From NCBI GenBank assembly GCA_020832005.1, contig JAFIFN010000001.1:9775-73774 (forward strand): a stretch of DNA of 64,000 nucleotides, written 5' to 3'. The notes below the pieces were generated by a model. It had not been told where the DNA came from. It ran no database searches and saw only the letters and a list, made by a program, of their open reading frames with translations. Origin of the DNA: Gammaproteobacteria bacterium (lineage in GTDB: Bacteria > Pseudomonadota > Gammaproteobacteria > Steroidobacterales > PWYM01). Positions within the stretch are counted from its first letter, which is position 1. Each line of letters opens with the position of its first letter. Positions 8,337 to 40,544 of this stretch are shown here, piece after piece. The translations under genes and the position numbers were made by a program.

Positions 8337-8351
8337 ACCGGCAAGCCCTGG

Positions 8352-10198: not shown

Positions 10199-10877
10199 CG
10201 TCCCGCGGTACCGCATGCACATACTCCGGCCCGTCGACGCGTTCGTCACCGAGCAGGCGCGCGGCGATGGCCGTCATGCGTGTCTCCACACTGGCATCCA
10301 CCAGCGAGACATCGGTTTCGACCCGCGTGCCGCCCCGGCTGAGAGTGAGGTCGTCGTGCAGACGAATGGTCCGCTCCAGGGTCTCTGCAGGCAGCGCCTC
10401 GCGGACCAGGCGTACATCCTCGGGATGCAGATGGATATGGACGCGGGTTTCCGACATCGGCAGGGCGGCCATGGCCTCGCGCACGACGCGTACGATCTCA
10501 CCGGGCTCGCGCGACAGCTCCCGGCGGACGAACTGGCGTGCAATGACCAAGACGAGCTCACCGAGTTGCTCAAGCAGCGGCTCATCCAGCACGCCTGCCA
10601 GCGGATCTATGCTCTCCAGCAGGTCTTCGAGTCGCTGAGCCGCATCATTCATCTGCAGCCGTCCTGCGGCGCGACCTTCCTCCAGACCCCGACGGTAACC
10701 TTCTTCATGGGCCTGTGCTTCAATATCGCCGATGCGCTCGGCCGTCAGTGGCATGGAGAGCACCCCGGGCTGAGAGCCTGCGGACATGCCGGACATGTCA
10801 GGAGCATGCCAACGCCGCACCGTTGTGCCTTGCGCCGGAGCAGCGCCTGTCATGGTCTGTGATTCAGACGAAGTCAT
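10179..10877 (-). CDS. fliH: Flagellar assembly protein FliH
   Basis: 232 aa. Central EAQAHEEGYRRGLEEGRAAG repeat-like helix and a C-terminal FliH domain. Lies between fliG and fliI. Confidence 0.85.
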   Translation of the reverse strand: MTSSESQTMTGAAPAQGTTVRRWHAPDMSGMSAGSQPGVLSMPLTAERIGDIEAQAHEEGYRRGLEEGRAAGRLQMNDAAQRLEDLLESIDPLAGVLDEPLLEQLGELVLVIARQFVRRELSREPGEIVRVVREAMAALPMSETRVHIHLHPEDVRLVREALPAETLERTIRLHDDLTLSRGGTRVETDVSLVDASVETRMTAIAARLLGDERVDGPEYVHAVPRDDDRAGD

Positions 10878-11889
10878 CGCCGCCCTTGCCTCCTACCGCG
10901 ATCTCGCCTTCCTCTGACAGGCGTCTGACGATGCCCAGAATCTCCTTCTGTGCTGCCTCGACCTCCGAGACGCGGGTGGGGCCGCGCATCTCGAGGTCCT
11001 CCTGCAGACTTTCCGCGGCGCGCTTGGACATGTTGCGCAGGATCAGAGCCTTGATCTCCGCCGTGGCCCCCTTCAACGCAATCACCAGTTGATCGCTGGA
11101 GACCTCACGCAGCAGTCGCTGGATGCTGCGGTCATCGAGATCCAGCAGGTTTTCGAAGGTAAACATCAATTCCTGGATTCGCCCGCCGAGACTCTCGTCA
11201 GAGGCCTTGATGCTGTCGATAATGGCGGCCTCGGCCGAGGAATCCATCAGGTTGAGAATGTCCGCGGCACGCTTGAGGCCACCCACGACGCTGGTCTTGG
11301 ACGCAGAAGTGCCCGAGAACTGACGTTCGAGAATCTGGTCAAGTTCCTGCAACGCACTGGGATGAATGCTCTCCAGCGATGCGATCCGCATGATCACATC
11401 GCTGCGTATACGATCAGGGAGAAACCCCAATACTTCAGCCCCGTGATCACTGTCCAGATAGGACACGACAATAGCCATGATCTGCGGATGTTCATCGCGG
11501 ATCATGTCTGCCACCGCGCGGCCGTCCATCCACTTCAGCGATTCAAGACCACTGGAGTTACCGCCGACGAGGATGCGGTCGATCAGACTTCGCGCCCGGT
11601 CCTCTCCGAGTGCCTGATTCAGCACCTTTCGCAGGTATTCATCACTTCCCACACCGATCGGCGTCTGATCCTCCACCACCGCGGTGAACTCGGCCACCAC
11701 ACGCGAGAGCTGCGTACGACTGATTGCCGGCATCGCGGCCATCGCCGTACCGATACTCTGTACTTCCTTCGGGCCCAAGTGTTTGAGCACCGCCGAGGCA
11801 GTATCTTCGCCCAGGGTCATCAGGAAGATCGCAGCGCGATCCACGCCACTGATGACCGCCTGACCTGATGATTGCGCTTTACTTGCCAT
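10864..11889 (-). CDS. fliG: Flagellar motor switch protein FliG
   Basis: 341 aa. GVDRAAIFLMTLGEDTASAVLKHLGPKEVQ and C-terminal RLLREVSSDQLVIALKGA...RNMSKRAAESLQEDLE torque-helix region. Confidence 0.95.
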   Translation of the reverse strand: MASKAQSSGQAVISGVDRAAIFLMTLGEDTASAVLKHLGPKEVQSIGTAMAAMPAISRTQLSRVVAEFTAVVEDQTPIGVGSDEYLRKVLNQALGEDRARSLIDRILVGGNSSGLESLKWMDGRAVADMIRDEHPQIMAIVVSYLDSDHGAEVLGFLPDRIRSDVIMRIASLESIHPSALQELDQILERQFSGTSASKTSVVGGLKRAADILNLMDSSAEAAIIDSIKASDESLGGRIQELMFTFENLLDLDDRSIQRLLREVSSDQLVIALKGATAEIKALILRNMSKRAAESLQEDLEMRGPTRVSEVEAAQKEILGIVRRLSEEGEIAVGGKGGDDFV

Positions 11890-13558
11890 CCTGGTTCATC
11901 CATGTGCGTACGACCTGGGCCACCAGCCGCGGATCATCCGTGGCCACCTTTCGTACCCTGTTGAGTTCATCATCCAGCGAGCCACCGGCGCCTCCACGGT
12001 CAGACAGGCTCTGAAACTCATCCCCGGGCTGACCAAGCTGACCGGCTGCCCGGGCGCTCCCTGGCGGCTCCGGCAATCCGGGCGCGCCGCCCGCCATCGC
12101 AGGCATGGCTCGACCGGGCGCCGGCGCAGGAAGCTGCACGAGTTGTCGCAGCGTGGGCCGCAGCACCAGCAGGATCAGCAGCAACAGTCCCAGTGCAGCC
12201 ATGCCCTGGCGGGCGAGATCACGGATCCAGGGCTCCTCCCACAGGGGACGTGCTTCCAGCGCCTCGGGCTCGGCCACTTCACGAAACGAGGCATTGACGA
12301 CATTGATTCGGTCGCCGCGCGCCTCATTGAAGCCAACAGCCTCGCCGACCAGCGACTGCAGATAGGCCATTTCAGCCGCATCCCGGGGCAGACGCAGGCG
12401 TTCGCCACCCTCACCGCGGCCGATCCGGTCATCGACAACCACTGCAACAGAGATCCGTGACAGCGTGGCGGGTGCCTGGCGGATATGGCTGACCTCGCGG
12501 TCGACCTCGAAGTTTCGGGTGCTGCGCGAACTGCGTGAGGCCGGGTCGCCGGTGCGCTGTTCGTCGTTCATCAATCCCTGTGCCGGCATCACCACCGTGG
12601 CGGCACCAGGCGGCTGATTGGTCAGCGCTCCGGGCACACCCCCGGTTACCGGATTGCGACTCTCCTCCTCGCTGGTCTGCTCGCTGCGAAGCACGATGCG
12701 CTCAGGATCGAAGCTCTCGCGAGTGCTTTCGATCTGGGTAAAGTCGATGTCGGCGGTCACCTGCACGCGCATGCCGTCAGGCCCGACCAGCGGCGCGAGA
12801 ATATCCTCGATGCGCTCCCGATAGGCATCCTCAAGGCGACGGGTGTAGTCCAGGTGCTGCGCGGTCAGCCCTCCGGCTGCCGCACCGGCCATCTGGCTGA
12901 GCAACTGCCCACGCTGGTCGATGACAGTGACACGCTCGGCTTCGAGCTCAGGGACACTGGAAGCGACCAGGTGCACGATACCGGCGACCTGGGCGTCATC
13001 GAGCATGCGCCCGGGATGCAGGTGAACGATGACCGAGGCGCCCGGCTTGATGCGGTCGCGGACGAATACGGACTGTCGTGGCAGCGCCAGGTGTACGCGT
13101 GCCCGCTCAACGCTGTTCAGCGTCGTCACCGAGCGCGCAATCTCGCCTTCCAGCGCCCGCTGGTAGCGGGCCGTCTCGACCATCCGGCTGGTGCCGATGC
13201 CACTGTCCTGGTCGAGCAACTCGAAACCCACGCCATCGGCGCGCGGCAAGCCCTCTGTGGCCAGGTTCAGGCGCGCCTCGGCAACGCGTGTGGCCGGCAC
13301 CATCAGGGCACCACTGCGCGCATCGAGTCGATGCGGAATATTCTGCCGACTGAGCACCGTCACGGCCTGGGCGATGTCGCGCTCAGCCGCACCAGACAGC
13401 AGCACCTGGTAGCCGGGCCGCAGCCCCCACATCACCACGGTGACCGCAAGGGCAAGCACCACGGCCAGACCGAGCACCGTGCCGAACTGGCGTTGTGCCG
13501 GCAGTCGACCCAGGCCTGCAAACTGTTTACTGATCGTCCGGGGCAGATTGTCCGCCAT
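11879..13558 (-). CDS. fliF: Flagellar MS-ring protein FliF
   Basis: 559 aa. N-terminal TM, YscJ/FliF ring-building motifs (LATEGLPR..GFELLD) and a second TM near the C-terminus. Confidence 0.95.
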   Translation of the reverse strand: MADNLPRTISKQFAGLGRLPAQRQFGTVLGLAVVLALAVTVVMWGLRPGYQVLLSGAAERDIAQAVTVLSRQNIPHRLDARSGALMVPATRVAEARLNLATEGLPRADGVGFELLDQDSGIGTSRMVETARYQRALEGEIARSVTTLNSVERARVHLALPRQSVFVRDRIKPGASVIVHLHPGRMLDDAQVAGIVHLVASSVPELEAERVTVIDQRGQLLSQMAGAAAGGLTAQHLDYTRRLEDAYRERIEDILAPLVGPDGMRVQVTADIDFTQIESTRESFDPERIVLRSEQTSEEESRNPVTGGVPGALTNQPPGAATVVMPAQGLMNDEQRTGDPASRSSRSTRNFEVDREVSHIRQAPATLSRISVAVVVDDRIGRGEGGERLRLPRDAAEMAYLQSLVGEAVGFNEARGDRINVVNASFREVAEPEALEARPLWEEPWIRDLARQGMAALGLLLLILLVLRPTLRQLVQLPAPAPGRAMPAMAGGAPGLPEPPGSARAAGQLGQPGDEFQSLSDRGGAGGSLDDELNRVRKVATDDPRLVAQVVRTWMNQDGK

Positions 13559-13604
13559 CTCAGGAAGCTTCCTTGTCAGCGTGTTTCAGGGCAGTGCAGG
13601 TCCA

Positions 13605-13925
13605 TCAGACCTGCATGTTCATGATTTCCTGGTAAGCCGCGACCAGGCGATTTCGCACCTGTGTCACCGCTTCGAACTGCAGACTGGATTTCTGCATCGC
13701 CACCATGACATCGGGCAGGCTGACCTGGGCATCGCCGGCCACGAAGCGGGTTGTCAGCTCGCCCGAGTGCTGTTGCGCCGCATTGACCTGGTCGAGCGAC
13801 TGCTTGAGCAGGGTTGCGAACTCCGCACCCTGGGCCGCACCACTCGCGGCGGCCGGGCCTTCACCGGCACGCGCGGACAGCGCGCGCATCTGAGCCAGTA
13901 CCTGCTGTATCTGCATGTCACTCAT
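13605..13925 (-). CDS. fliE: Flagellar hook-basal body complex protein FliE
   Basis: 106 aa. C-terminal [37 protein letters not shown]. The start ATG overlaps the stop of the upstream activator gene (ATGA). Confidence 0.93.
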
Positions 13926-14914
13926 GGCAGTGCCACTCCCATGTCACGTAGCCGCGCCATCTTGTAGCGCAAGGTGCGTGGGCTGATGCCCAGCCGGTCG
14001 GCCGCGGGCTTGCGGCGACCCTCTTCAGCGCGCAGCGCCGCGCGAATCAACTCGCCTTCCGACACCCGCAGCGAGGCCTCAAGATCCAGCGCCTCACCGT
14101 CATCGCCGACGCCCGCGAGCTGCTGCGTCTCGCCGCCATCGATGCGCAGATCGGCCGGCTCAATGACGCCACCGGTGTGGAGGATCAGCGCCCGCTGCAT
14201 GACGTTTTCCAGTTCCCGGACGTTGCCCGGCCAGTCATGCCGACGCAGGTAGTCACAGGCTGCCGTGCTGAGTGCGGGCACCTTGCGATCGGCCGCATGA
14301 CGCTGCAGCAGATGCGCGGCCAGCGCGATGATGTCATCCGGACGGTCCCGCAACGCCGGGACCCGCAGGGGGAACACATTCAACCGGTAGTAGAGGTCCT
14401 CACGCAGCACCCCTTCGCCGACGGCCTCGCGCAGCTGGCGATTCGACGTGGCAATGACGCGTACGTCCACACGCCGGGCACTGGCGGCTCCCAGGCGCTC
14501 GACTTCGCGCTCCTGGAGCACGCGCAGCAGCTTGGCCTGCAGGGTAATCGGCATCTCGGTGATCTCATCGAGCAGCAGCGAGCCGCCGCTGGCCTGCTCG
14601 AACTTGCCGGCACGCGCATCGCTTGCCCCGGTGAAAGCACCCTTTTCATGACCGAACAAGGTCGCTTCGAGCATGGGCTCGGGGATCGCCGCACAGTTGA
14701 CGGCGATGAAGGGCCCGGACTTGCGGCTCGAGGCGGCATGGATGAAGCGCGCGTAGACTTCCTTGCCCACGCCGGATTCGCCCGTAAGCATGACGGTCAC
14801 ATCGGCCGCCGCGACGCGCTCGGCCAGCGCGAACATCTCGCGACTGCGTGCGTCCAGGGCGATCGGGAGATCACGATGGCCACCAGGGCTCGCCAGCTTG
14901 TCGGCTTCGGTCAT
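13922..14914 (-). CDS. sigma54-dependent transcriptional activator without a receiver or other N-terminal regulatory domain (FleT-like); AAA+ core plus Fis-type HTH
   Basis: 330 aa. Only ~25 residues precede the AAA+ core (Walker [15 protein letters not shown] sigma54-contact loop, Walker B LLLDEI). C-terminal [22 protein letters not shown]. Own sigma54 promoter upstream. Translationally coupled to fliE. Confidence 0.85.
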
Positions 14915-14962
14915 GCGTCCGAACTCCTGCGGGTCGGTATGAAGGACTGTCGCAGGAGTAAA

Positions 14963-14978
14963 AGCAAAACCCGTGCCA
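14963..14978 (-). promoter_or_regulatory. sigma54 -24/-12 promoter of the activator-fliEFGHIJ operon: TGGCAC-gggtt-TTGCT
   Basis: Reverse complement of agcaaaacccgtgcca, ~50 nt upstream of ATG 14914. An AT-rich block (14981-15030) lies just upstream and contains an IHF-like AATCAGTAAATAA. Confidence 0.8.
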
Positions 14979-15077
14979 TAGCACGTTATTTACTGATTAA
15001 TATGGGAATTTCTTATTTTCCGCGCGGCCAGGACGTTGTGGCCGTCAAGCTTCTGACGCGCAGACGGAGCAGGATGT

Positions 15078-16598
<1,521 letters not shown>

Positions 16599-16711
16599 GC
16601 TGCCCCATCCCTGAAAGCTCGCCGACCCCGTCCCTAACGAGCCGCAGTGTCCCCCATATGCGACAGTAACTTCAATAGGGAGGACCCGCAATGTCGCAGG
16701 GGGAAACCCTT

Positions 16712-16727
16712 CGCAGGTCCATTGCCA
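16712..16727 (-). promoter_or_regulatory. Weak sigma54-like element upstream of fleQ: TGGCAA-tggac-CTGCG
   Basis: Reverse complement of cgcaggtccattgcca. GG-N10-GC spacing is right but both hexamers are degenerate. fleQ/flrA are usually sigma70-driven in other genera. Confidence 0.3.
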
Positions 16728-16737
16728 TGGTTGTAAC

Positions 16738-17331
16738 TCAGCGTGTGGTACGGCTGTGCGCCACGGCGCGTCGATGACGTCGAAACACCAGCTTGTCCAG
16801 CCAGTCCCGCGACCCGGTCGACAACCCTTCCAGGCGCGCGCAGGCGCGCCAGCCGTCGCGACGCGCCTCTGCGCTGGTCACCCGTCCGTGCAGCGTCAGT
16901 GGCACCGGCCAGGCCGGCAGTGCGAAAATCTCGAATTCCAGCAGCGCGCCCTGCGACACCGGCCCGGCGTCATCCCAGCACAGCCCCCGGGCGTTGAGAC
17001 GCATTGAATGAGGGCGTATGGGTTCGGCCTGGCGTTCACGCATCAGCTCGGTCAACAGTTCAAGCACCAGGTTGAGCTTGCCCTCGATGCGGTGCAGCTC
17101 GGCACGTTCCGCGGCATCGGACTGTGTCTGATCCTGTTCTTCGAGCATCGCAATCGAGCGCAACACGGTCTCGTTGCGGGCATTGATCCTTGCCAGCAGC
17201 ACCTCACCGGGCAATGCCTCCACCCGGCGCCAGCGCAACCCCAGTTCATCGTCGCAGAATACGCGTTCACCGAGCACGTCGATCTCGCCAGGAGGCAGGA
17301 TGCGATAGAGCCCGGACATCGATTCGCTCAT
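16738..17331 (-). CDS. PilZ-like (atypical PilZ) domain protein, putative c-di-GMP receptor
   Basis: 197 aa. A long central helix (LRSIAMLEEQDQTQSDAAERAELHRIEGKLNLVLELLTELMRERQ) is followed by a small beta-rich domain with SMRLNARGLCW resembling the PilZ xxSxxG strand. No canonical RxxxR. Assigned by resemblance only. Confidence 0.45.
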   Translation of the reverse strand: MSESMSGLYRILPPGEIDVLGERVFCDDELGLRWRRVEALPGEVLLARINARNETVLRSIAMLEEQDQTQSDAAERAELHRIEGKLNLVLELLTELMRERQAEPIRPHSMRLNARGLCWDDAGPVSQGALLEFEIFALPAWPVPLTLHGRVTSAEARRDGWRACARLEGLSTGSRDWLDKLVFRRHRRAVAHSRTTR

Positions 17332-21765: not shown

Positions 21766-23328
21766 TCAATGCGCGTCCGGCAGCATCGCCAGTATTCTTT
21801 GCCGGGCGCGCTCGAAGGCGTGCGCGAACAGTGGTGCCTGCGCCTGATAGGCGTCCGTGAGGCAACCGAATGCCGCGGTAACCTGAACTCTGGCCTCGTC
21901 GCTGCCCGCCATGCCGACCACCTCCGGACGCACGCTGCGCGCAGCGTCGTTGGCGCACATCGCATCCCAGTCCAGACCATGCACCTCAAGCATGCGCCGC
22001 ACACAGCTGTCAGGATCGGCCACCAGGTCTTCGTAGGACAGTACGCTCACGCGTTCGGGAAACAGCGCCTGCCAGTGCGCAGCCAGGCGCTCATACACAA
22101 GTATGTATTCGGCGATCAGGTCCACATCCCAGGCGTAGGGATGAGGCTGCTCGAAGTACTTCAGGTAGATGGCCAGCGCGTTGGCAAAGTGCTCACGGCG
22201 ACAGATCACCAGTCTTGTCTGAGGATTGAGCATCATGAGCATGCCGGCGTAGATGATGTTGCCAGGAGTCGTCACCAGATGAGTGACAACGCCCGGGGCG
22301 GGTGCCTCGCCCCATGCAGCCTCCAGCAGGGTTCCAAGCCGGTCCATCGCCATCGCATCGAGGTTGCGTAGCGAGTCGGGGTAGGCGGCCAGCAGTCCTT
22401 GGCCTGATTTGCGCAGCACCTCGTCGATGACATCGCGCTCGCCCCAGCCACGGATCGCCGGATGCGCCCCGAGCGCGCCTTCCAGCAGGCTCTTGCCGGC
22501 ACGCGGGGGGCCCAGCACCAGGGTGAGGCCCCTGTCTGATCGAGTCCGAACGCATCCGGCGGCGACGAATTCTGGCTGAAACACGTCGATGACACGCGTC
22601 GCGAGGCGAATCAGCAATCCACCGCGCAGGCGCTCGACCTCGGTGCGTTCATGTTCACACATCAAGCGGTTGCCTGCCTGACAGGCCTTGAACGAAGCAA
22701 GCGAATCCCCACCATCCTGGTACATCTTGCTCAATGCGAACTGCAACATTGCGCGCTCCCGAAGAGACAGCCGATCGCGCTGCAGCAGCTTGCGCAGCTG
22801 CTTGATCTGAGCCCCTGCGCCGGCGAAATGCCGGGTCTGCGAGTATCGAAGCCAAAGCTCGGCATCGTCGCGCCGCACGGCCAGCAGCGCCGCCAGAAAA
22901 GCACTCGCCTCCTCCATGCGTCCCAGCGCCCGCAGAGCCATTGCATACAGCCTCATCGCCTGCTGGCTCTCGGGGTTCAGCCGCATTGCCTCACGCAGCG
23001 CGGCGGCGGAAGCTTCGTAACGACCCAGTTCGTAGAACGTACTTCCGACCAGTTCGAATACGCCCGCATCGGCGTCCGGAAGACTGAGCAGCTGCGCGGC
23101 GTACTGCAGCGCCGTGTTGTGCATGCGCAGTTGCAGGGACAGCAGCGTCAGCGACGTCAGCGCCCCGCGATTCTGGGGGTCGCGCTCAAGCACCTGGCTC
23201 AACAACTCTACTGCATCGAGCTTGCGGTCCTCGTCAACAGCCTGGCTGGCTTCAGTGAGCAGGGAGCGAAGCTCTGATGCCGGTGCCGCTGCCGCTGCCG
23301 ACAGGCGTGGCCGGGTCGCCGCCATCAT
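21766..23328 (-). CDS. TPR-repeat / sulfotransferase-domain fusion protein (candidate flagellin-modifying enzyme)
   Basis: 520 aa. The N-terminal ~200 aa are TPR-like (AVELLSQVLERDPQNRGAL; YELGRYEASAAALREAMRLNPESQQA; LGRMEEASAFLAALLAVRRDDAE). The C-terminal half has a PAPS 5'-phosphosulfate-loop-like LVLGPPRAGKSLLEGALGAHP, then VICRREHFANALAIYLKYF and YEDLVADPDSCVRRMLEVHGLDWD, as in TPR-containing sulfotransferase families. The ATG overlaps the flgL stop (ATGA). Confidence 0.7.
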   Translation of the reverse strand: MMAATRPRLSAAAAAPASELRSLLTEASQAVDEDRKLDAVELLSQVLERDPQNRGALTSLTLLSLQLRMHNTALQYAAQLLSLPDADAGVFELVGSTFYELGRYEASAAALREAMRLNPESQQAMRLYAMALRALGRMEEASAFLAALLAVRRDDAELWLRYSQTRHFAGAGAQIKQLRKLLQRDRLSLRERAMLQFALSKMYQDGGDSLASFKACQAGNRLMCEHERTEVERLRGGLLIRLATRVIDVFQPEFVAAGCVRTRSDRGLTLVLGPPRAGKSLLEGALGAHPAIRGWGERDVIDEVLRKSGQGLLAAYPDSLRNLDAMAMDRLGTLLEAAWGEAPAPGVVTHLVTTPGNIIYAGMLMMLNPQTRLVICRREHFANALAIYLKYFEQPHPYAWDVDLIAEYILVYERLAAHWQALFPERVSVLSYEDLVADPDSCVRRMLEVHGLDWDAMCANDAARSVRPEVVGMAGSDEARVQVTAAFGCLTDAYQAQAPLFAHAFERARQRILAMLPDAH

Positions 23329-26451: not shown

Positions 26452-27506
26452 CTCTCATCTCCCGCGGCCGCGCGCACATGCGCAACCTGTGCTGATGGTG
26501 GGTTGTCGGCCGCGGGCGTGTGAACTTGATCACGCGGTGAGCTCGCCGTGTTGGCCGCGCTGCTCGATGTCTCGCGCGAGCGCACCGGCACCCCCGGCAG
26601 TCCCCGCTCGACGATCGACATGATCTTGGCGGCATACTCGGGATCCGTGGCCCAACCGCCCTTCTGCAGGCCGCGGGCATAGTCAGCACTGGTGCTGGCC
26701 TCCCGCGCCGGTGCATAACGTGGCCGGTTCTCGATGATCTGTACGTAATCGTCGAAGCTCTCGGCGATGCTGGCGTAGACGCGAAACGGCTCACGGCGAC
26801 GCTCGGGCACGCCATTAATGAACTCCAGCGTCGAGACGCTGGCCTGCCTGCCCTGCCACCCGCCTGTCGCCTTGATGCCGAAGAGATTGTGTGAGGGGCG
26901 GCCGGTCGCATCGGTGATCATGTGCTGACCCCAGCCGGTCTCAAGCGCGGCCTGCGCGACCAGCACATCCGGCGGCACGCCAAGCCGTTGCGCCGCCCGA
27001 CGCGCGTGCGGCCACAGGGCAGAAACGAAAGCCTCCGGCGTCTCGGGCGCAAAGCGCTGAGCGGTCGTACGGGCGAGCGGATTTACGCTTGGGCCTGCTT
27101 CGGGCTGTCGATAGCTTGCCGCCTCGGGGAGCGCCGAGGCGTGATCGCCGCGCAGGCGCACCGGTCCCATCGGCGATACTGGCCGTGCGGTCTGGCCATC
27201 ATCGCCCCCGAGCTGGCGCAGAATCGAGTCGGCCAGGCCGATACCACGGCCCCGCGACAGCGTCAGCGACATCTGCTGGTCGAGCATATCCTCGTGAAAG
27301 CGCATACGCTCGCGATCCACCAGGCCGCCATCGATGACCGAGGAAGCATCACGCATCTGCTTGAGCATCTGGTTGAGAAACAGCGCCTCGAACTGCTGCG
27401 CCACGGCACGGCGCGCCTCGGGCGTATCATTGGCGGCCTCGCGACGCAGCGAGGCCATGCCCTGCAGGTCGGTAAAGGTGAAGGCCGCGTCGATACCAGC
27501 GCTCAT
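26448..27506 (-). CDS. flgJ: Flagellar rod assembly protein / peptidoglycan hydrolase FlgJ
   Basis: 352 aa. N-terminal rod-binding domain (AVAQQFEALFLNQMLKQMRDA) and a C-terminal glucosaminidase domain (AQAALETGWGQ...NLFGIKA...). Ends in a ~60-aa Ser/Pro/Ala-rich tail. Confidence 0.92.
   Translation of the reverse strand: MSAGIDAAFTFTDLQGMASLRREAANDTPEARRAVAQQFEALFLNQMLKQMRDASSVIDGGLVDRERMRFHEDMLDQQMSLTLSRGRGIGLADSILRQLGGDDGQTARPVSPMGPVRLRGDHASALPEAASYRQPEAGPSVNPLARTTAQRFAPETPEAFVSALWPHARRAAQRLGVPPDVLVAQAALETGWGQHMITDATGRPSHNLFGIKATGGWQGRQASVSTLEFINGVPERRREPFRVYASIAESFDDYVQIIENRPRYAPAREASTSADYARGLQKGGWATDPEYAAKIMSIVERGLPGVPVRSRETSSSAANTASSPRDQVHTPAADNPPSAQVAHVRAAAGDER
26503..26529 (-). promoter_or_regulatory. 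sigma28 promoter of the flgK-flgL-sulfotransferase operon: TCAAGTT-N12-GCCGACAA
   Basis: Reverse complement of ttgtcggc-N15-ttga, inside the flgJ 3' end ~52 nt upstream of the flgK ATG. One mismatch in the -10. Confidence 0.7.
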
Positions 27507-27512
27507 GGGCGT

Positions 27513-28667
27513 TCAGATCACGATCAGCTCGGCGCGCAGCGCGCCGGCCTGATGCAGCGCCTCAAGGATCGCGACCAGGTCGCCGGGGGCTGCGCCGACA
27601 TCATTCACCGCGCGTACGATCTCGTCGAGGTTGGTGCCGGGCCCGAAGGGGAACATCCGCGAGCCGCCCTCGCTGACCTCTATGTCGGTTCTTGGCGTCA
27701 CGACCGTCTGGCCACGCCCGAATGGCTCGGGCTGCGAGACATCGAAGTTCTCCGTGATGGTCACGGTCAGACTGCCATGGGACACCGCTGCCGGCAGCAC
27801 GCGCACGCCGCCGCCCATGACGATCGTGCCGGTTCGCGCGTTGACGATGACCCGTGCCGGCGGCTCGCCGGGGGTCACCGTGAGATTCTCGAGCACGGAG
27901 ACGAAGGCCACGCGCTGCGAGGGATCCATTGGCGCGCGCACGCGCACGGAGGTGGCGTCCATCGGCATGGCCAGCACATCACCGAGCGAGTCATTGATCG
28001 CATCGGCCAGGCGCCGCGCCGTCGTGAAATCCGCTCGATTGAGATTCAGCACCAGGCTGTCGCCATGATTGAAGCTGCTGGCCACTTCACGTTCGACCGA
28101 GGCACCCCCGGGAATACGACCGACGCTGGGCACGTTGACGGTGACCCGCGAGCCATCACGCCCGCCCGCACCGAATCCACCCACCACCAGATTGCCCTGT
28201 GCCATCGCATAGACCTGGCCGTCGGCACCCAGCAGCGGCGTCATCAACAGGCTGCCTCCGCGCAGGCTGCTTGCATTGCCGATGGACGAGGCCGTGATAT
28301 CGATGGTCTGACCCGGCTTTGCAAACGGCGGCAGCTCGGCATGCACCATCACCGCCGCCACGTTCTTCACCTGCAAATTCGTACCCGGTGGAATCGTCAC
28401 GCCCAGCTGGCCGAGCATGTTGCGCAGGCTCTGCGAGGTGAACGGCGCCTGCGTGGTCTGATCGCCGGTGCCGTCGAGACCCACCACCAGCCCATAGCCG
28501 ACCAGCTGGTTGGAACGCACGCCCGCCACGCTGGCGAGGTCTTTCACGCGTTCGACAGCATGGCCGGTAGCGGGTGCGCCCACCGCTGCGAACGCTGTCG
28601 CCAGAGTGCACAGCAGCCATACCGGCACCGCGCGGCGAATGCGTGAAACTGATTTTGTTGCGATCAT
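27513..28667 (-). CDS. flgI: Flagellar P-ring protein FlgI
   Basis: Signal peptide followed by [33 protein letters not shown] 28667 is preferred over the GTG 28682 of the ORF track. Confidence 0.95.
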
Positions 28668-33999: not shown

Positions 34000-34932
34000 T
34001 CAATGACGCCGCGAGTTGAGAAGAAACTCGGTGACGGCCCCGGCGAACTCGTCAGGATCGAATTTCGCGAGCAGACGATCAGCGCCTGCCTCGTGACACG
34101 CGCGACTGTTGAAGCGACCGCTCAGCGAGGAATGCATCATCACGAAAAGCTGCGCCAGGCGCGGATCCTTGCGGATCTCACGCACCAGCGTATAGCCGTC
34201 CATCTGCGGCATCTCAATATCGGAGATCACCATCGAGACACGTTCGTCAACGCTGCCAGTATCGGCCCAGTACCTGAGTCGGTCCAGCGCCTGGACCCCA
34301 TCATTGCACAGGATCGCATCCACCCCGATGTCCTGCAGGGCGCGGCTGATCTGATTGCGGGCCACCGCTGAGTCATCGGCGACCAACGCGCATCGTGGAC
34401 GCTCGCCCAGGGTTTTGCGGGCATGGATAGCGATCTGCGTGGACACACCGGCGCCCGGACCGGTCACCAGATTCAGCACCCGTTCGACGTCCAGGATCTG
34501 CACCAGGCGGTTGTCGATAAGCGTGATCGCCGTGACATGAGACTGTTCCGGATCGTCAACGGGAGGCGGATGGACGCTATCCCAGCCGGTATTGACGATA
34601 CGCTCGATGCCGCTGACCAGCAGCCCCTGGATGGAGCGGCTGAACTCGGTGAGCACGATGTAGTCGGCCTGCCGTGCCGGCAATGAGGGCTGGCCGATGG
34701 AGCGGGCGAGGTCGAGCACCGGAACCGTCACACCGCGAATCCGCGCCAGCCCCGCGACCAGCGGATGGGCATTTGGAAAACGGCGTAATGGCGCGGCCTG
34801 GACGACTTCCCGGACCTTGAAGACGTTGATGCCGTAGAGCTGGTCATGGCCGAGACGGAACAATAGCAGCTCAAGCCGGTTCTGGCCCACAAGTCGCGTC
34901 AGGCGGTCAACATTTTCGAGCACCTGGGCCAC
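34000..34932 (-). CDS. cheV: Chemotaxis coupling protein CheV (CheW-like domain + receiver)
   Basis: CheW-like domain (LELLLFRLGHDQLYGINVFKVREV...) followed by REC (ALVADDSAVARN...VISDIEMPQMDGYTL...). I place the start at GTG 34932 (GGAG 5 nt upstream), because a sigma28 promoter at 34977-35003 lies inside the longer ORF listed to 35013. Confidence 0.88.
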   Translation of the reverse strand: MAQVLENVDRLTRLVGQNRLELLLFRLGHDQLYGINVFKVREVVQAAPLRRFPNAHPLVAGLARIRGVTVPVLDLARSIGQPSLPARQADYIVLTEFSRSIQGLLVSGIERIVNTGWDSVHPPPVDDPEQSHVTAITLIDNRLVQILDVERVLNLVTGPGAGVSTQIAIHARKTLGERPRCALVADDSAVARNQISRALQDIGVDAILCNDGVQALDRLRYWADTGSVDERVSMVISDIEMPQMDGYTLVREIRKDPRLAQLFVMMHSSLSGRFNSRACHEAGADRLLAKFDPDEFAGAVTEFLLNSRRH

Positions 34933-34976
34933 TGAGACTCCAAGAAACTGGTGGGGGAACACGCGATGCACGAGGG

Positions 34977-35003
34977 GTATCGACCACTTGCGCATAAACT
35001 TGA
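34977..35003 (-). promoter_or_regulatory. sigma28 promoter of cheV: TCAAGTT-N12-GTCGATAC
   Basis: Reverse complement of gtatcgac-N15-ttga. Confidence 0.75.
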
Positions 35004-35034
35004 TCGCCAACACGGATCACCGGCGCATAAGAAC

Positions 35035-35887: not shown

Positions 35888-35914
35888 TCAAGTTTCGGCA
35901 GTCACGGTCGATAG
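35888..35914 (+). promoter_or_regulatory. sigma28 promoter of flgMN: TCAAGTT-N12-GTCGATAG
   Basis: Read directly on the plus strand, ~60 nt upstream of the flgM ATG. Matches the known class-3 promoter arrangement of flgM. Confidence 0.75.
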
Positions 35915-35973: not shown

Positions 35974-36267
35974 ATGCAGATCAAGCACTCGACAATCAGC
36001 GATCCGGCGGCCGGCCAGCGGGCCGGAAGTTCGGCTTCTCCGCGCAACCAGGCAGCTGGGCAAAGCGTTTCGGGCGGTACCAGCGCCGACCAGCTGACGC
36101 TGACGCCGGCGGCCCGCCAGTTGCTTGAGGCGAACCGTGCGGCGCCGGGCGACGGGGTCGACGCCACCCGGGTAGCCCAGATCAAGGCACAGATTGCCGA
36201 TGGCCGCTACCAGGTTGATGCACAACGCGTTGCCGAGCGTATCCTGGCAATGGAGAAGGCGCTCTAG
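35974..36267 (+). CDS. flgM: Anti-sigma-28 factor FlgM
   Basis: 97 aa. C-terminal VAQIKAQIADGRYQVDAQRVAERILAME is the FlgM sigma28-binding helix pattern. Confidence 0.92.
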   Translation: MQIKHSTISDPAAGQRAGSSASPRNQAAGQSVSGGTSADQLTLTPAARQLLEANRAAPGDGVDATRVAQIKAQIADGRYQVDAQRVAERILAMEKAL

Positions 36268-36708
36268 ATGTCCGCCCACGATCCGCAGCAACTGCACCAA
36301 CCCGAGTCCACGCACAGCGGTGCTGGCGCCGCGCTGCAGCAGTTGCTGACGCTTCTCGAGGCCCTCGAGGACGCGCTCGGGCATGAAGCGAAGGCCCTGG
36401 TAGCTGGAGACATGGCGGCGCTTTCGACGCATACCATCACCAAGCGGGCGCTGCTGCGCGAACTCCAGGGACGCATGAGCCCGAACAGCGTATCTTTTTC
36501 GGGCCAGGATGTGCCGGAACTGCTTGCAAGGCTGCATCGCTGCCATGCGCTGAATCAGTCAACCGGTGCGGCCATCTACAGCGCAATGCGTCACAACGCC
36601 CAGGTGCTGAGCATGCTCGGCTATGACTCCGGCCCGGTCGCATATGCGCCGCACGGCAGCTCATCGACAGGTATCACCCACAGCGGCCGCAGCCTGGCAA
36701 GCGCCTGA
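36268..36708 (+). CDS. flgN: Flagellar chaperone FlgN (FlgK/FlgL-specific)
   Basis: 146 aa, helical. LLTLLEALEDALGHEAKALVAGDMAAL... The ATG directly abuts the flgM stop. Confidence 0.8.
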   Translation: MSAHDPQQLHQPESTHSGAGAALQQLLTLLEALEDALGHEAKALVAGDMAALSTHTITKRALLRELQGRMSPNSVSFSGQDVPELLARLHRCHALNQSTGAAIYSAMRHNAQVLSMLGYDSGPVAYAPHGSSSTGITHSGRSLASA

Positions 36709-36751
36709 CGACGACCTGCCGCAAAGCTTCCGCACCGTCATCGGTGGCTCC

Positions 36752-36778
36752 TCAAGTTAGTACCCCCAGTGCCGATAC
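36752..36778 (+). promoter_or_regulatory. sigma28 promoter of the MCP-PilZ unit: TCAAGTT-N12-GCCGATAC
   Basis: Read directly on the plus strand, with a perfect -10. It lies inside the ORF-track version of the MCP (start 36769), which argues for the ATG at 36814. Confidence 0.8.
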
Positions 36779-36813
36779 CTCTTGCATCACCACCCAACCA
36801 GGTGTTCGCGCTT

Positions 36814-37971
36814 ATGGCAAACAAGGATTCTGTGCTGTTGACCGCAACGCTGGTCGCCGCTTTGGCCGTGGCCAGCCTGCTGGCCATCACCGCCATCTTT
36901 GGCCGCTGGCTGGAAGCTGCGCTTGCTGCGCTTGCGCTGCTGGCAACGGCGGCAGCCCTGTGGCGTACATTGGTTCGGACGTCGGCGTCAAAAGTCTCCC
37001 GCGATCAGGTGATCGAGCTCGTCCGCGGCCTGGATACCGAGCTTGACCAGGACGTCGAGGGCATCGAGCTTGAGATCCACCGCGTACAGAAGCTGATCGC
37101 CGGGGCCGTCGCCGAGCTCTCGGCCAGCTTCACCCGCCTGCACGCCATCGCCCGCTCGCAGGGAGAGCTGCTGGAGCGAAGTCTTGGCACCGGTCCCGAC
37201 AGCCAGGCACAGGACAGTGTCGGTAGCGAGGCGTCGGTGGATGCGCTGCATGGTTTCATGGAGGCGCTTGTGAGTGTCAGCGGGCAGAGCGTTGCCATGG
37301 CGGCCGATACCGAAAATATGCTCACGCACCTGCACGGTATTTTTCGCGTACTCGAAGAAGCACGCAGCCTCGCCGAGCAGACCAACCTGCTGGCGCTGAA
37401 CGCGAGCATCGAGGCCGCCAGGGCTGGCGAGGCCGGTCGCGGGTTTGCGGTAGTCGCCGATGAAGTGCGCAAGCTCTCGCAGCGATCCGCCGAGTTTAAT
37501 GAGCAGATCCGCGAAAGAGTCGAGGAGACACGTGAAGCCGTTGCCCGGGTACAGAACAATGCGCACACACTCGCCTCGTTTGATCTGGAAAAGACCACAG
37601 CCGAGAAGAATCGTATCAGTCGCGCCCTGAAACGTGCCGAGAGCGCGAGGAGTGAGATACGACAGAAACTGATGACAGAGCTCGCCCCCATCAACGAAAA
37701 CCTGCATAGCACTGTGGCCGATGCAGTGCGTTCACTGCAGTTCCAGGACAGCTCCACCCAGGCCCTGACCACCGCTGCTGAAGCGATCTCACGACTTACG
37801 GACCTGCGTGTCGAGGTACAGTCTGCTGTCCGGGGTACATCCGACCCTTTGAGCTGGATCCCGGTCTTGACCGAGAAACTCAGTACTCTGCGAACCCGTC
37901 GCCGCACGCGCATGCGATCGAGGCCTGTGGCCCAGACCTCGATGACGCAAGGCAGCGTCGAGCTTGTCTGA
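36814..37971 (+). CDS. Methyl-accepting chemotaxis protein lacking a periplasmic ligand-binding domain (TM hairpin + MCP signalling domain)
   Basis: 385 aa from ATG 36814 (MANKDSV). Two TM helices are separated by only GRW. The highly conserved tip is [44 protein letters not shown]. Basic C-terminal tail without an NWETF-type pentapeptide. Confidence 0.88.
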
Positions 37972-37999
37972 TCGTTCACATACTTCGACGGCAAGCCAC

Positions 38000-38659
38000 A
38001 TGACAATCACTCTCCCGCAGATCGGTACACGCATGAGTGTCGAGAGCGCGCACCTGTCCGGGCGTTTCTGGTCGACGCTGATCGGCTACCGAAAGGGCAG
38101 TTATGTCATGCTCGAGACACCAGAGACAAAAATCCCGCCCGGTCTCAGCGTGGCGTTCTCAGAACAGGATGTGCTTACTATCCGGTACGTAGAAAACGGT
38201 ACCGTCGTAGGCTTCCGTACGCCGGTGCTCGGGCGCATACGCGCCCCCGTAATGCTGATCGTCGCGGCATATCCTCACCATGTCCATACGCATGCGCTGC
38301 GTCAGCACCCCAGGTTGAGCTGTTACCTGCCCTGCCATGGACGGATAGGCGAACATGTTTTCACTCGCGCAATCCTGCGCGATGTCAGTGTTCACGGCTG
38401 CCAGCTGCGCATCCCGGTGGAAAACCTGCCCCCGGAAGGCAAACAGAAGTTACTGGAGGGCGAGATCGAAATCGAGCTGGCCCTGCTGGGCGAACACGGG
38501 TCGAATACTATCGATCAGTGCATCAACGGACGCGTGGTGGGCCTGGAGTCGCAACGCGGCTATGCCATGTTGCGCGTCCATACCGATGCTGATCTCAACG
38601 AACTGATGAGCTATCTGAGCGCCTTCACTGCCCGCATCGAGTTCAGCTCCACCGCTTAG
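38000..38659 (+). CDS. YcgR/FlgZ-type PilZ-domain protein (c-di-GMP-dependent flagellar brake family)
   Basis: YcgR-N-like domain (GRFWSTLIGYRKGSYVMLETPE) followed by a PilZ domain with RxxxR (LRQHPR) and DxSxxG (RDVSVHGC). The first ATG is at 38000. The ORF track uses TTG 37964, which would overlap the MCP stop by 8 nt. Confidence 0.8.
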   Translation: MTITLPQIGTRMSVESAHLSGRFWSTLIGYRKGSYVMLETPETKIPPGLSVAFSEQDVLTIRYVENGTVVGFRTPVLGRIRAPVMLIVAAYPHHVHTHALRQHPRLSCYLPCHGRIGEHVFTRAILRDVSVHGCQLRIPVENLPPEGKQKLLEGEIEIELALLGEHGSNTIDQCINGRVVGLESQRGYAMLRVHTDADLNELMSYLSAFTARIEFSSTA

Positions 38660-38672
38660 CCAACCTGCCCCC

Positions 38673-39569
38673 TCACTCGGCTGCGCACTCCTGTGTAGCC
38701 AAGGCCAGGATGTCATCGCCAACGCTTGGATCCAGCCCGAGCGCGTGCATGTCCAGCGGGTTCGCCGGTGCGAGATCGGCCGCAAAGCTGCCAGGCAGTC
38801 GGCCAGAAAGCTGGTCAGCCAAGGCGATGATCCGCGCCAGGAGACCCGACGCATCGTCGCTGAATTGCGCCTCGTGATGACCTGCTACCAGGGAGACAGT
38901 CCAGTCGGGAAACTTCCAGGTCCGCAGCGCCGCCGCCCCGACCTGTGCGTGATCCATGCCAAGATGCGCACGCTCACTCGCAAGATAACCGTCGGGCTCA
39001 TGAGACACGGCAGTCACCACGTCGCAGAAGCCCTGGCGATCGAGCTGGATCATCACGATATGACCGACATCATGCAGCAACCCCCCAAGAAAGGCGCGCT
39101 GTGGGTCAACCCCCGGCACGTGCAGCGCAAGGCGGCGCGCGACAGCGGCCGTGGTCCTGGCATGCATCCAGAGGCAGCGGGCGTCGAAACGCTCGCACAA
39201 CCTGCCCTGTTTGAAAAGCCGCCTCAGCGTCGCGGCGTAAATGAGGTTCCGCAGGGCTTCGAATCCAAGCACGCGCAGCGCCTGGTGCAGGGACTCGACC
39301 TGCCGGGAAAGCCCGTAGAACGGTGAATTCGCCACTGCCAGCACATTGCTGGACAAAGCCACATCCTGCTTGAGCAGTTGCAGGACACGAAGATCCGAAA
39401 TATCCGGATCACGCATCTCCGCCATCAGCTGGGCTGCGAAATCGCCGATCGTCGGCAACCGCCTTGCACGGAAGTTACCAGTGCTGTCAAACGCTGCGGC
39501 CAGACCCTGTCGCGGTGACCGGCGAGGCGTTTCCGCTGGCGCCTGGCTACCGGGAAGCTCCCCATTCAT
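38673..39569 (-). CDS. HDOD domain protein (paralogue 2)
   Basis: LLKQDVALSSNVLAVANSPFYGLSRQVESLHQALRVLGFEALRNL...GGLLHDVGHIVM is the HDOD pattern. ATG 39569 (GGAGGCGGAAG upstream) is preferred; the ORF-track start 39620 would overlap the upstream paralogue by 23 nt. Confidence 0.8.
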   Translation of the reverse strand: MNGELPGSQAPAETPRRSPRQGLAAAFDSTGNFRARRLPTIGDFAAQLMAEMRDPDISDLRVLQLLKQDVALSSNVLAVANSPFYGLSRQVESLHQALRVLGFEALRNLIYAATLRRLFKQGRLCERFDARCLWMHARTTAAVARRLALHVPGVDPQRAFLGGLLHDVGHIVMIQLDRQGFCDVVTAVSHEPDGYLASERAHLGMDHAQVGAAALRTWKFPDWTVSLVAGHHEAQFSDDASGLLARIIALADQLSGRLPGSFAADLAPANPLDMHALGLDPSVGDDILALATQECAAE

Positions 39570-39597
39570 ACCACTTCCGCCTCCACATCCTGGTTTA

Positions 39598-40521
39598 TCA
39601 ATGACCATTGGCGAATTCACCCTGCAGCCTTCCCAGTTCAGCCCTGACCTGCTGTTGCAGGGCCTGCCGTCGAGTCCACCGGAAGTTCAGACAGCTCAGC
39701 AGTTCTACATCCGGCACGCCGGGTTCGGAAGTGAACTGCAGACCGATACCCGAATCGCATACCAGGCAATCGGCCAGCGCCACGACGCCCACCAGGGCCC
39801 GCACGCCCGAAGGCTGTGCCATGGGCTCATGGTGGTGTCGGACAGCTTCCACTATGCCTTCCGGCAGGCGCCATCCGGCCAGTACCTCGGCGGCGATCTG
39901 AGCATGGTCGGCGCCGAAGGCCTGGCGCTCGAGTTTAATCCAGCCGCGCGGACCCGTGGGGCCCGGCCCGGCACGGCCTTCGGCGACCAGCCCACACAGC
40001 GTCTCGAACTCGCCGTAGAGTTGCAGCAGCAAGCCGAAGTCGTGCAGCAGGCCAGCGAGGAAAGCATCCTCGGGCGCAAGTCTGGGGTGGGTGGCCGCAA
40101 GCATACGTGCCGTGACCGCGACACCCAGGCAGTGTGTCAGTACATCCGAGGCGGAAAATCCGGAGCCTATGCTGGGCAGACTGGGCATGCGATAGCAGCT
40201 GGCTGCCAGCGCGATCCCACGAATCGTCGGCAGCCCGAGGACGACCACAGCGCGCTCGATCGAGGAGATCGTACGGGGTTGGCCATAGTAGGCACTGTTG
40301 ACCACCTTGAGCACGCGAGCAGCCAGCGAGACATCCCGGCTGATGATACGGCTGATGCTGGCAGCACTGCCATGCTCACCGGCCAGTGTGCCGATGAGTT
40401 CGGCAATCGACACGTCGACACAGGGCAGGCGTGCAGCCATCCGGGCAATACGTTCATTGCAGCCCGGGGGTGGTACTGCCATGGCGTCTGCGCCGTTCGA
40501 GCCTGGATTCGATGCGTGCAT
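39598..40521 (-). CDS. HDOD domain protein (paralogue 1)
   Basis: 307 aa. SRIISRDVSLAARVLKVVNSAYYGQPRTISSIERAVVVLGLPTIRGI...AGLLHDFGLLLQL. Begins 23 nt after the motB stop. Confidence 0.8.
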   Translation of the reverse strand: MHASNPGSNGADAMAVPPPGCNERIARMAARLPCVDVSIAELIGTLAGEHGSAASISRIISRDVSLAARVLKVVNSAYYGQPRTISSIERAVVVLGLPTIRGIALAASCYRMPSLPSIGSGFSASDVLTHCLGVAVTARMLAATHPRLAPEDAFLAGLLHDFGLLLQLYGEFETLCGLVAEGRAGPGPTGPRGWIKLERQAFGADHAQIAAEVLAGWRLPEGIVEAVRHHHEPMAQPSGVRALVGVVALADCLVCDSGIGLQFTSEPGVPDVELLSCLNFRWTRRQALQQQVRAELGRLQGEFANGH

Positions 40522-40544
40522 GACTTGTGACCGCGGTCCGCGCC

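Follow-up and report, generated by a model that had tools for sequence, protein, structure and literature searches.

A McpA-like chemoreceptor gene behind flgN, probably the survivor of an F7-core deletion, with a predicted sigma28 promoter of its own and a YcgR/PlzD-type PilZ gene downstream

Why does a chemoreceptor gene stand between the flagellar gene flgN and a gene for a PilZ protein? The question is raised by a stretch of 64,000 nucleotides (nt) of contig JAFIFN010000001.1 (Gammaproteobacteria bacterium, assembly GCA_020832005.1), hereafter the window, in which the gene order is cheV(-) flgA flgM flgN MCP PilZ HDOD(-) HDOD(-) motB(-) motA(-), where MCP denotes a methyl-accepting chemotaxis protein. 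An initial annotation, made from the sequence alone, placed the MCP between flgN and a flgZ-like gene as part of a two-gene unit and proposed that the two genes could couple the level of cyclic di-GMP (c-di-GMP) to the chemosensory array. Comparison with relatives favors a different history. The MCP is probably the McpA-like survivor of a deletion that removed the core of an F7 chemosensory cluster, with its own sigma28 promoter in front and the PilZ gene behind. Coordinates of the features are collected in Table 1.

By its sequence, the MCP belongs to the McpA-like family (PA0180/CttP, VCA1088, SO_2117), which is an already described family, so that the protein is no novel kind of MCP. A search of 5.8 billion proteins retrieved a compact family of MCPs of 370-410 amino acids (aa) in Gammaproteobacteria, carried by Thioalkalivibrio, Thiorhodospira, Marinobacterium, Lysobacter, Thermomonas, Luteimonas and many metagenome-assembled genomes (MAGs). 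The members share in the alignment a short membrane hairpin, an AVRSLQFEDIS segment and the C-terminus V-Q-x-S-M-x-x-G-x-V-E-L-F. The [ST]VELF ending of the family matches the McpA-like motif table of PMC7184735, where Supplementary Table 12 gives EVELF for PA0180 and VCA1088, TVELF for xanthomonads and EIELF for SO_2117. The same study (Ortega et al. 2020, PMC7184735) describes McpA-like proteins as transmembrane receptors of stage-1 and stage-2 F7 clusters with an unassignable heptad class and a highly conserved C-terminus, which has Val at position 2 of a pseudo-pentapeptide, does not bind CheR and has no known role. These receptors are dispensable for the F7 array and were reported to join the F6 array (PMC7184735, PMC7534058), and McpAso of S. 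oneidensis is found at the pole with CheA3/CheW3 (F6) independently of F7 proteins (Fortier et al. 2022, PMC9855816). In P. aeruginosa, McpA and Aer2 are differently regulated (Fortier et al., PMC9855816), and CttP has been linked to trichloroethylene taxis in work cited in PMC7534058.

Similarly to PA0180, VCA1088 and SO_2117, the window MCP is anchored in the membrane, has no periplasmic ligand-binding domain, is hard to assign to a heptad class, carries a tail that is of the x-[VIL]-[ED]-L-F type except for its last residue and is not a CheR-binding pentapeptide, has an F6-like tip unlike that of the Aer2-like receptor of the cluster, and has homologues that lie after cheB in stage-1 F7 clusters. 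Homologues with 31-49% identity occupy this place in F7 clusters of Thioalkalivibrio, Marinobacterium, Vibrio, Rhodanobacteraceae and Alteromonas. Over the range of 31-78% identity, the slot after cheB is held by a relative at loci L003, L005, L006, L007, L008, L010, L011, L012, L091, L094 and L096, and at L009 the mcpA-like gene lies ahead of cheY-cheA. The distant members close cheA-cheW-(PAS/HAMP MCP)-cheR-cheD-cheB clusters (L003/L004, L005, L007, L010 in Vibrio, L011 in Rhodanobacteraceae and L012 in Alteromonas), and are often followed by genes for a STAS protein and a response-regulator phosphatase. The genome-contig scan with the MCP alignment matched universal tip peptides, and 74 of the 80 loci listed were unrelated MCPs; L009-L012 and L049 were the useful ones, and L025, taken up as a candidate McpA-like locus, proved not to be one.

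McpA-like receptors have been described as "always neighboring" an F7 cluster (PMC7534058). The window MCP departs from this norm, as flgN lies directly upstream and no F7 gene was found within the 64 kb; it also differs in its last residue, which is Val, and in being followed by a YcgR-type PilZ gene and not by STAS and phosphatase genes. The mcpA-like gene of L089 and a stand-alone gene of Luteimonas abyssi (L001) likewise are not beside an F7 cluster. F7 adjacency is a trait of distribution and not a definition of a McpA-like protein. The L. abyssi gene (L001:5944-7435), which has a perfect sigma28-like site, lies between hflD (DUF489) and a PAS-GGDEF-EAL gene, and a 77-aa open reading frame (ORF) follows the mcpA-like gene.

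The order of genes in relatives points to the origin of the present arrangement. L089, with an MCP 85% identical to that of the window, has the same order, with the mcpA-like gene after flgN and the PilZ gene next. At L091 (MCP 71-77% identical) and L006 (71-72%), the MCP follows cheB of a complete F7 cluster and precedes a gene with PilZNR and PilZ domains. L094 (GCA_007127715.1; 72%) and L095 have the order cheV(-) flgA flgM flgN STAS cheY cheA cheW aer2-like cheR cheD cheB mcpA-like, followed by an Xre-like gene and PilZ, and L096 (59-67%) has flgA flgM flgN STAS ... cheB mcpA-like, followed by a 106-aa ORF and unrelated genes. In blastn comparison, the window was collinear with L094 over flgC/B-cheV, flgA and flgM, the alignment then jumped from L094 position 7683 to 17050, and collinearity resumed with the mcpA-like and PilZ genes. 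For the window and for L089 alike, collinearity with L094 holds on the two sides of this gap of approximately 8.7 kb, and the genes missing are STAS, cheY, cheA, cheW, aer2-like, cheR, cheD and cheB. STAS...cheB-mcpA is the canonical stage-1 F7 order (PMC7184735), and every outgroup mcpA-like gene follows cheB; therefore, the simplest history is that the core of about 8.7 kb was lost in the common ancestor of the window and L089. Whereas the missing segment emerges from the gene-order comparison itself, its polarity, loss as opposed to gain, we infer by parsimony. That the MCP and its PilZ neighbor form a unit inserted behind flgN does not agree with this result, because relatives hold a whole F7 cluster at that place and it is the core that the window lacks.

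Searches with blastn-short and tblastx detected no significant remnant of F7 genes in the flgN-mcpA spacers of the window and L089, so the deletion breakpoints are not definable. Among the homologues of the L091 CheA, none was traceable to the L089 assembly; the only one whose source was looked up, P0135, belongs to a different assembly. As the L089 assembly is a fragmented MAG, this negative does not speak for absence.

Several small reading frames lie downstream of the mcpA-like gene in the relatives. The ORF between mcpA-like and PilZ at L094:18068-18466 and L095:10250-10648 encodes 132 aa and matches Pfam Xre-like-HTH PF20432; the window, L089 and L091 lack this element, and in the same place of L006 there are approximately 470 nt with only a 56-aa ORF called. 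Where no YcgR-type PilZ gene follows, an ORF of 106-113 aa comes after the mcpA-like gene (L096:11170-11582(+) and L008:8177-8614(+)). It has a signal-peptide or lipobox-like N-terminus (MLKRLSCLVAVSAVLGGPAFAC...) and its own perfect sigma28-like site upstream, gave no match in Pfam, and has a homologue at L006:12373-12840.

We next consider the promoter of the receptor gene. The element TCAAGTTA-N11-GCCGATAC, which lies 36 nt ahead of the ATG of the MCP, is of the class of TAAAGTTT-N11-GCCGATAA-type elements, and was called a strong sigma28 element in the initial annotation. When the 64 kb were scanned with the pattern TCAAG-N14-GCCGATA, it was the sole match with zero mismatches, in full agreement with that description. 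Allowing two mismatches or fewer gave 12 matches, compared with 3.7 expected, and none of 100 shuffles reached 12. Five other good matches were located upstream of fliC (21625-), flgK (26504-), cheV (34978-), flgM (35888+) and motA (42409-), all of which are classical late flagellar genes. This result indicates that the late flagellar genes of this organism share the element, and the MCP has the best copy of it. The MCP is predicted to be transcribed from this promoter along with the late flagellar and chemotaxis genes.

A relaxed pattern, T[AC]AAG-N14-16-GCCGATA, in which each half was allowed no more than one mismatch, was used for the relatives. An element of this kind was found 57-66 nt upstream of the start codon of mcpA-like genes at eight other distinct loci, and in three contexts: behind flgN (L089), behind cheB (L091, L006, L094, L008, L096/L092, and L007 of Thioalkalivibrio sp. 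XN279), and before the stand-alone gene of L. abyssi. L049 also has a sigma28 element upstream of its mcpA-like gene. The element was not found before the mcpA-like gene at L003/L004 and L005, where the gene is 11-23 nt from cheB, nor at the Vibrio, Rhodanobacteraceae, Alteromonas and Sulfuricella loci (L010, L011, L012 and L009, respectively). The background of the relaxed pattern was 0.14 per kb per strand (1.4 Mb; 2.8 Mb over both strands), which corresponds to approximately 0.01 match expected per 100-nt upstream region. In the alignment of the upstream regions the -10 element was nearly invariant, and the motif CCCAACCAGG in the 5′ untranslated region (UTR), downstream of the promoter, was common to the window, L089, L006 and L094. 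The shared -10 element and motif indicate that the window has retained the ancestral mcpA promoter and 5′ UTR. The sigma28 promoter of the mcpA-like gene thus appears to predate the rearrangement and to be an old trait in several lineages, where the gene would be of the late flagellar class even inside an F7 cluster. Such expression would fit the reported residence of these receptors in the F6 array. No link of PA0180/cttP to FliA was found within the papers searched, and in this literature a sigma28 promoter is undescribed for the McpA-like family (PA0180/CttP, VCA1088, SO_2117).

A perfect sigma28-like site, TAAAG-N14-GCCGATA, also occurs just before the STAS gene that opens the F7 cluster (L094:8222-8247(+) and L096:1465-1490(+)), and the F7 cluster joined to flgAMN in this clade may belong wholly to the flagellar regulon. 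For the F7 clusters of Vibrio and Pseudomonas, papers on the RpoS regulon are cited by PMC7184735.

The protein itself has the architecture expected of the family. Pfam recognized MCPsignal at residues 164-304 (E 3e-25) as the sole domain, and no HAMP domain was found by the Pfam search. According to hydropathy and the AlphaFold2 (AF2) model, the membrane helices span residues 2-29 and 32-58 and are linked by G30-R31; the very short link noted in the initial annotation therefore stands, although W32, which it counted as the third linking residue, already starts the second helix. The AF2 model (pLDDT 71) has arms of approximately 140 residues, a break or loop of 12 residues at 126-137, and a disordered tail. 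A family profile aligned with the 44H receptor TM1143 almost without gaps, and the heptad class of the window MCP is ambiguous, as it is in publications, where McpA-like receptors are unassigned, 24H or 44H depending on the paper (PMC7184735, PMC9855816, PMC7534058). The hairpin tip is canonical; it differs at five positions from that of the Aer2-like receptor of the same clusters, and resembles the tips of ordinary Pseudomonas, Vibrio and Shewanella receptors; a tally of tip motifs, its sample being biased, serves as illustration only. The first description of a receptor with a two-helix hairpin, no periplasmic domain and a canonical tip was thus accurate. It was likewise borne out that the MCP has no CheR-tethering xWxxF pentapeptide, although the conserved McpA-type C-terminus had been missed.

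The consensus of methylation sites, [ASTG]2-x2-[EQ]2-x2-[ASTG]2, was scanned in its strict and relaxed forms. There was no match of either form in the McpA-like receptors of the window, L094, L096, L010 and L005, which represent separate lineages, and two matches, relaxed only, in that of L001, while three control receptors from the same loci (Aer2-like and other MCPs) had three strict matches each. McpA-like "methyl-accepting" proteins may not be methylated in the usual way.

The tail of the window MCP requires comment. It ends in SVELV (37960-37971), keeping position 2 of the family ending G-[ST]-V-E-L-F, without x-[HFYW]-x2-[HFYW] and with the final Phe replaced. A 99%-identical protein from another sample (P0001) ends in SVELV too, L089 ends in SVELF, and all 40 listed McpA-like proteins and the other family members have Phe or Tyr as the last residue (Tyr in two published cases). 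The Val codon is explained by a T-to-G change of TTC (Phe) to GTC (Val), and the same change creates the TTG at 37964, the likely start of the PilZ gene. Before the tail, an Arg-rich segment LRxRRxTRMRxRP (nt 37870-37925, residues approximately 353-370) is present in the window, L089, L091 and L006, and absent from the McpA-like proteins of L092, L008 and L007.

The gene that follows encodes, as judged from its domains, a YcgR/PlzD-type two-domain predicted c-di-GMP receptor. Pfam found PF12945 (PilZNR, E 9e-12) at residues 7-92 and PF07238 (PilZ, E 1e-7), and the RxxxR (RQHPR, 38300-38314) and DxSxxG (DVSVHG, 38381-38398) motifs were invariant in ten homologues, as would be expected from the canonical PilZ protein with a YcgR-N-like domain that had been described. 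Of the two starts that had been proposed, both of which the sequence allows, TTG at 37964 gives 231 aa and an overlap of 8 nt with the end of the MCP gene, and ATG at 38000 gives 219 aa and a gap of 28 nt. Because the N-termini of homologues align upstream of the ATG, the TTG is the likelier start. Compared with L089, approximately 25 nt including the PilZ ATG are missing in the window. Between the MCP and PilZ genes, no sigma70-like site, sigma28-like site or terminator was found, again as first reported. The two genes are very probably co-transcribed, and possibly coupled in translation; since no terminator was found, read-through from the flgM promoter into the pair is also possible.

The label "FlgZ-type", which the initial annotation gave to the PilZ protein, was not upheld. 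Among solved structures, a profile of the PilZ alignment reached only VCA0042/PlzD of V. cholerae (E 1.4e-8) and did not reach PP4397 at E 10. Full-length Foldseek search with the AlphaFold model (pLDDT 62) gave E values of 2e-11 for VCA0042, 2e-9 for MotI, 9e-7 for YcgR, 1.5e-6 for MrkH and 2e-5 for PP4397 (P. putida FlgZ, 3kyf), the last ranked 11th. The N-terminal domain matches PF12945 (PilZNR), and neither the profile nor Foldseek supports orthology to PP4397/PA3353. Pseudomonas flgZ is immediately downstream of flgMN and co-transcribed with it. The present gene resembles it (PSF113_4460, PP4397, PA3353) in encoding a two-domain PilZ protein downstream of flgMN in the same orientation with RxxxR and DxSxxG, and in its expression within the flagellar regulon, which here is predicted from sequence. 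In contrast to Pseudomonas flgZ, it is not adjacent to flgN: one gene lies between them here and nine or more in relatives, and at L094 there are eleven, comprising the F7 cluster, mcpA-like and the Xre-like gene. The PilZN-PilZ two-barrel organization is shared with PlzD (VCA0042), YcgR (E. coli) and MotI/DgrA (B. subtilis), of which VCA0042 is the best match in sequence and fold. These three are c-di-GMP-dependent brake or clutch proteins of the flagellum. The identity to them is, however, only 12-19%, the model has a pLDDT of 62 and a TM score of about 0.4, and for the present protein action on the motor and c-di-GMP binding are predictions.

The word-based search found only nine PilZ homologues, and scanning metagenomes with the PilZ alignment yielded one confirmed locus, L090. 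The PilZ genes of L090 and L093 (approximately 52% identity) lie behind a pair of histidine kinase and sigma54 regulator genes with no MCP nearby. In a neighbor-joining tree, the PilZ genes beside mcpA-like genes clustered together, which weakly suggests a single acquisition of PilZ in the ancestor of the clade with at least 71% MCP identity.

Does the adjacency of MCP and PilZ reflect a common function? A functional two-gene module, in which PilZ carrying c-di-GMP binds the receptor, possibly at the tail, and thereby links c-di-GMP to chemotaxis, either modulating kinase control or being parked at the array, is unlikely in our estimation, yet it accounts for several observations. All members of the clade with at least 71% MCP identity retain the adjacency (the window, L089, L091 and L094/L095/L006); the two genes share 8 nt in the window and are spaced by 14 nt in L089; the PilZ genes beside mcpA-like genes group together in the tree; LRxRRxTRMRxRP is confined to the McpA proteins of the PilZ-linked clade; and the conserved McpA tail has no assigned role. 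However, this clade is small and monophyletic, so that every one of these correlations is confounded by descent. The initial annotation had made conservation of the adjacency in relatives a test of its proposal, and the adjacency is conserved: the two genes are neighbors in L089, L091 and L094/L095/L006. They are so more loosely in the last group, where the 132-aa Xre-like gene or approximately 470 nt intervene, and in the next clade out (L096, L008) the mcpA-like gene has no YcgR-type PilZ neighbor. Furthermore, the nearest PilZ genes outside the clade (L090, L093) stand behind the kinase and regulator pair and not beside an MCP, and most McpA-like genes are followed by STAS and phosphatase genes.

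At least in part, then, the adjacency of MCP and PilZ appears to be an inherited gene order that was tightened by deletion. That this pair couples c-di-GMP to the array is speculative, adjacency being all that speaks for it, and a direct interaction of the two proteins, which none of the data requires, seems improbable. A more elaborate form of the idea starts from the replacement, in this clade, of the usual STAS and phosphatase partners by a YcgR-type PilZ protein and from the probable loss of the F7 core in the window lineage. That the pair is then a c-di-GMP-responsive unit within the F6 array, in which loaded PilZ binds the tail and either biases the kinase or passes to the nearby polar motor, is more doubtful still. 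If such a link were true, the McpA tail would gain a function and there would be a new route from c-di-GMP to chemotaxis. MapZ (PA4608), which acts with CheR1, and Tlp1 of Azospirillum are precedents for c-di-GMP acting on chemoreceptors. MapZ differs in being a single-domain PilZ protein acting through CheR1, whereas the McpA-like family has no CheR tether or canonical methylation motif, and Tlp1 has the PilZ domain in the same polypeptide, whereas here it is in a separate two-domain protein.

Less probable than the functional pair is a history in which flgN and an ancestral flgZ were neighbors until the mcpA-like gene moved in with its promoter; the F7 cluster would then lie elsewhere or have separately entered the flgN locus in relatives. 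The Pseudomonas order, with flgZ right behind flgMN, would allow flgN-PilZ to be ancestral, and L. abyssi, where the gene stands alone with the same promoter, indicates that a mcpA-like gene can exist by itself. On this history, however, a core inserting exactly upstream of an orphan mcpA must have recreated the canonical stage-1 order by chance, and flgN-F7-mcpA is common to the sister clade (L094) and the outgroup clade (L096). The PilZ protein, moreover, has no detectably greater similarity to FlgZ/PP4397 than to PlzD, MotI or YcgR. A related scenario, in which a promoter-mcpA-PilZ cassette was translocated from the end of an F7 cluster to flgN, was rejected because L094 and L096 have F7 itself behind flgN.

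Loss of the F7 core, which we prefer, leaves the question of whether the orphan receptor is maintained. Between the window and L089, the ratio of nonsynonymous to synonymous substitution rates (dN/dS) was 0.13 for the MCP and 0.10 for PilZ; for the same pair of loci it was 0.23-0.27 for FlgN and FlgM and 0.02 for MotA, and the F7-linked mcpA genes of L094 and L091 gave 0.17. The MCP and PilZ genes are under purifying selection. That the MCP became useless after loss of F7 and is decaying to a pseudogene, with Phe-to-Val as the first sign (the window and the 99%-identical sequence end in SVELV where all other family members have Phe or Tyr), is highly improbable, as the frame of 385 codons is intact, the promoter is a perfect consensus, dN/dS against L089 is as low as between F7-linked orthologues, and L089 has the same deletion yet keeps SVELF.

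Several points nevertheless weigh against the survivor history and what we attach to it. Only 64 kb are visible, and an F7 cluster elsewhere in the genome is possible; the polarity of the deletion is a matter of parsimony over a handful of metagenomic contigs. The terminal residue is Val and not the near-universal Phe or Tyr, so the function of the tail may be relaxed in this species. The tight overlap of MCP and PilZ also fits a functional pair. The loci of the tip tally were retrieved with a pattern from the same tip and the tally is hence biased, and the AF2 models are of only moderate (MCP, 71) and low-moderate (PilZ, 62) confidence. Use of the promoter, co-transcription, c-di-GMP binding and membership in the array are all deductions from sequence.

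With these reservations, the following working is proposed. The receptor would be made together with the late flagellar genes from the sigma28 promoter, insert into the membrane by its hairpin, and, by analogy with characterized family members, join the polar F6 array through its F6-type tip and signal via the F6 CheA. The cue that it reports would be membrane-borne or cytoplasmic. Since canonical methylation sites and a CheR tether are both missing, the receptor probably lacks the usual form of adaptation. PilZ would be made from the same transcript, possibly by translational coupling, and is predicted to bind c-di-GMP via RxxxR and DxSxxG. In the bound form it would most likely slow or disengage the motor at high c-di-GMP, similarly to YcgR, PlzD, MotI and FlgZ.

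McpA-like receptors present a puzzle, in that they are encoded with and co-evolve with F7 (Che2), yet are reported in the F6 array; the function of F7 (Che2) in most gammaproteobacteria and the role of the McpA tail are unknown (PMC7184735, PMC7534058). A sigma28-type promoter of its own, which the gene has in several lineages even when it is the last of the F7 cluster, would explain why the receptor is produced along with the flagellar chemotaxis apparatus and becomes part of it. In at least one lineage the F7 core has probably been lost here while the receptor stayed intact and under purifying selection, which argues for a function independent of F7 proteins. The F7 cluster of this clade directly adjoins flgAMN and has a sigma28-like site ahead of it. 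What is new here is a rearrangement of known parts: a McpA-like receptor parted from F7 by deletion, at a flagellar locus, with a YcgR-type PilZ gene next to it. These advances are modest and for specialists; a link between MCP and PilZ would matter more, but is unproven.

Table 1. Features of the flgM-HDOD segment of the window (positions counted from the first nucleotide of the window)
Feature	Position	Strand	Basis or remark
flgM promoter, sigma28-like, TCAAGTTTCGGCAGTCACGGTCGATA	35888..35913	+	One mismatch to TCAAG-N14-GCCGATA
flgM	35974-36267	+	Pfam FlgM E 1.5e-16; NCBIfam TIGR03824
flgN	36268-36708	+	Pfam FlgN E 2.3e-10
Junction, flgN stop to -35 element of MCP	36709..36751	+	Slot of the F7 core in relatives
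Predicted sigma28 (FliA)-type promoter of MCP, TCAAGTTA-N11-GCCGATAC	36752-36778	+	Pattern scan
McpA-like MCP, 385 aa, ATG to TGA	36814-37971	+	Pfam, family alignment, AF2 model
MCP transmembrane hairpin, about residues 7-29 and 33-53	36832-36972	+	
MCP hairpin tip, residues 191-221	37384-37476	+	
MCP conserved C-terminal tail, residues 371-385, ending SVELV	37924-37968	+	
YcgR/PlzD-type PilZ gene (PilZNR + PilZ)	37964..38659	+	Pfam PF12945, PF07238
Two tandem HDOD/HD genes	38673-39620, 39598-40521	-	Pfam HDOD E 2e-52; tblastn; context only

Equivalents of the sigma28-like site preceding flgM are present in L089, L094 and L096. On the other side of the locus, the HDOD/HD pair converges on PilZ and is followed by motB and motA, with the same layout in L089. 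The two HDOD/HD genes, lying between PilZ and motBA, are paralogues with 32% mutual identity, and the corresponding neighborhood of L006 has EAL-HDOD, HDOD-HD and PAS-GGDEF-EAL genes. The surroundings of the stator genes thus have a c-di-GMP flavor.

Some of the mechanically called ORFs of the window need adjustment. That of cheV (34000-35013(-), 337 aa) has a GTG start, and its first codons hold the sigma28-like site 34978-35003. The alignment of the L089 CheV with this ORF begins only at residue 26, which indicates that the true start of cheV is farther downstream and that 34978-35003 is the cheV promoter. Two others, 39346-40530(+) and 26922-28646(+), had no match in Pfam. The former runs antisense to the second HDOD gene and is probably an artefact; the latter, judging from the gene order of L089, probably overlies the expected flgI/flgJ, which are unconfirmed in the window. 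Between flgL and fliC, the ORF 21766-23328(-) encodes a protein with tetratricopeptide repeats of the sulfotransferase family, which may be a flagellin-modification enzyme.

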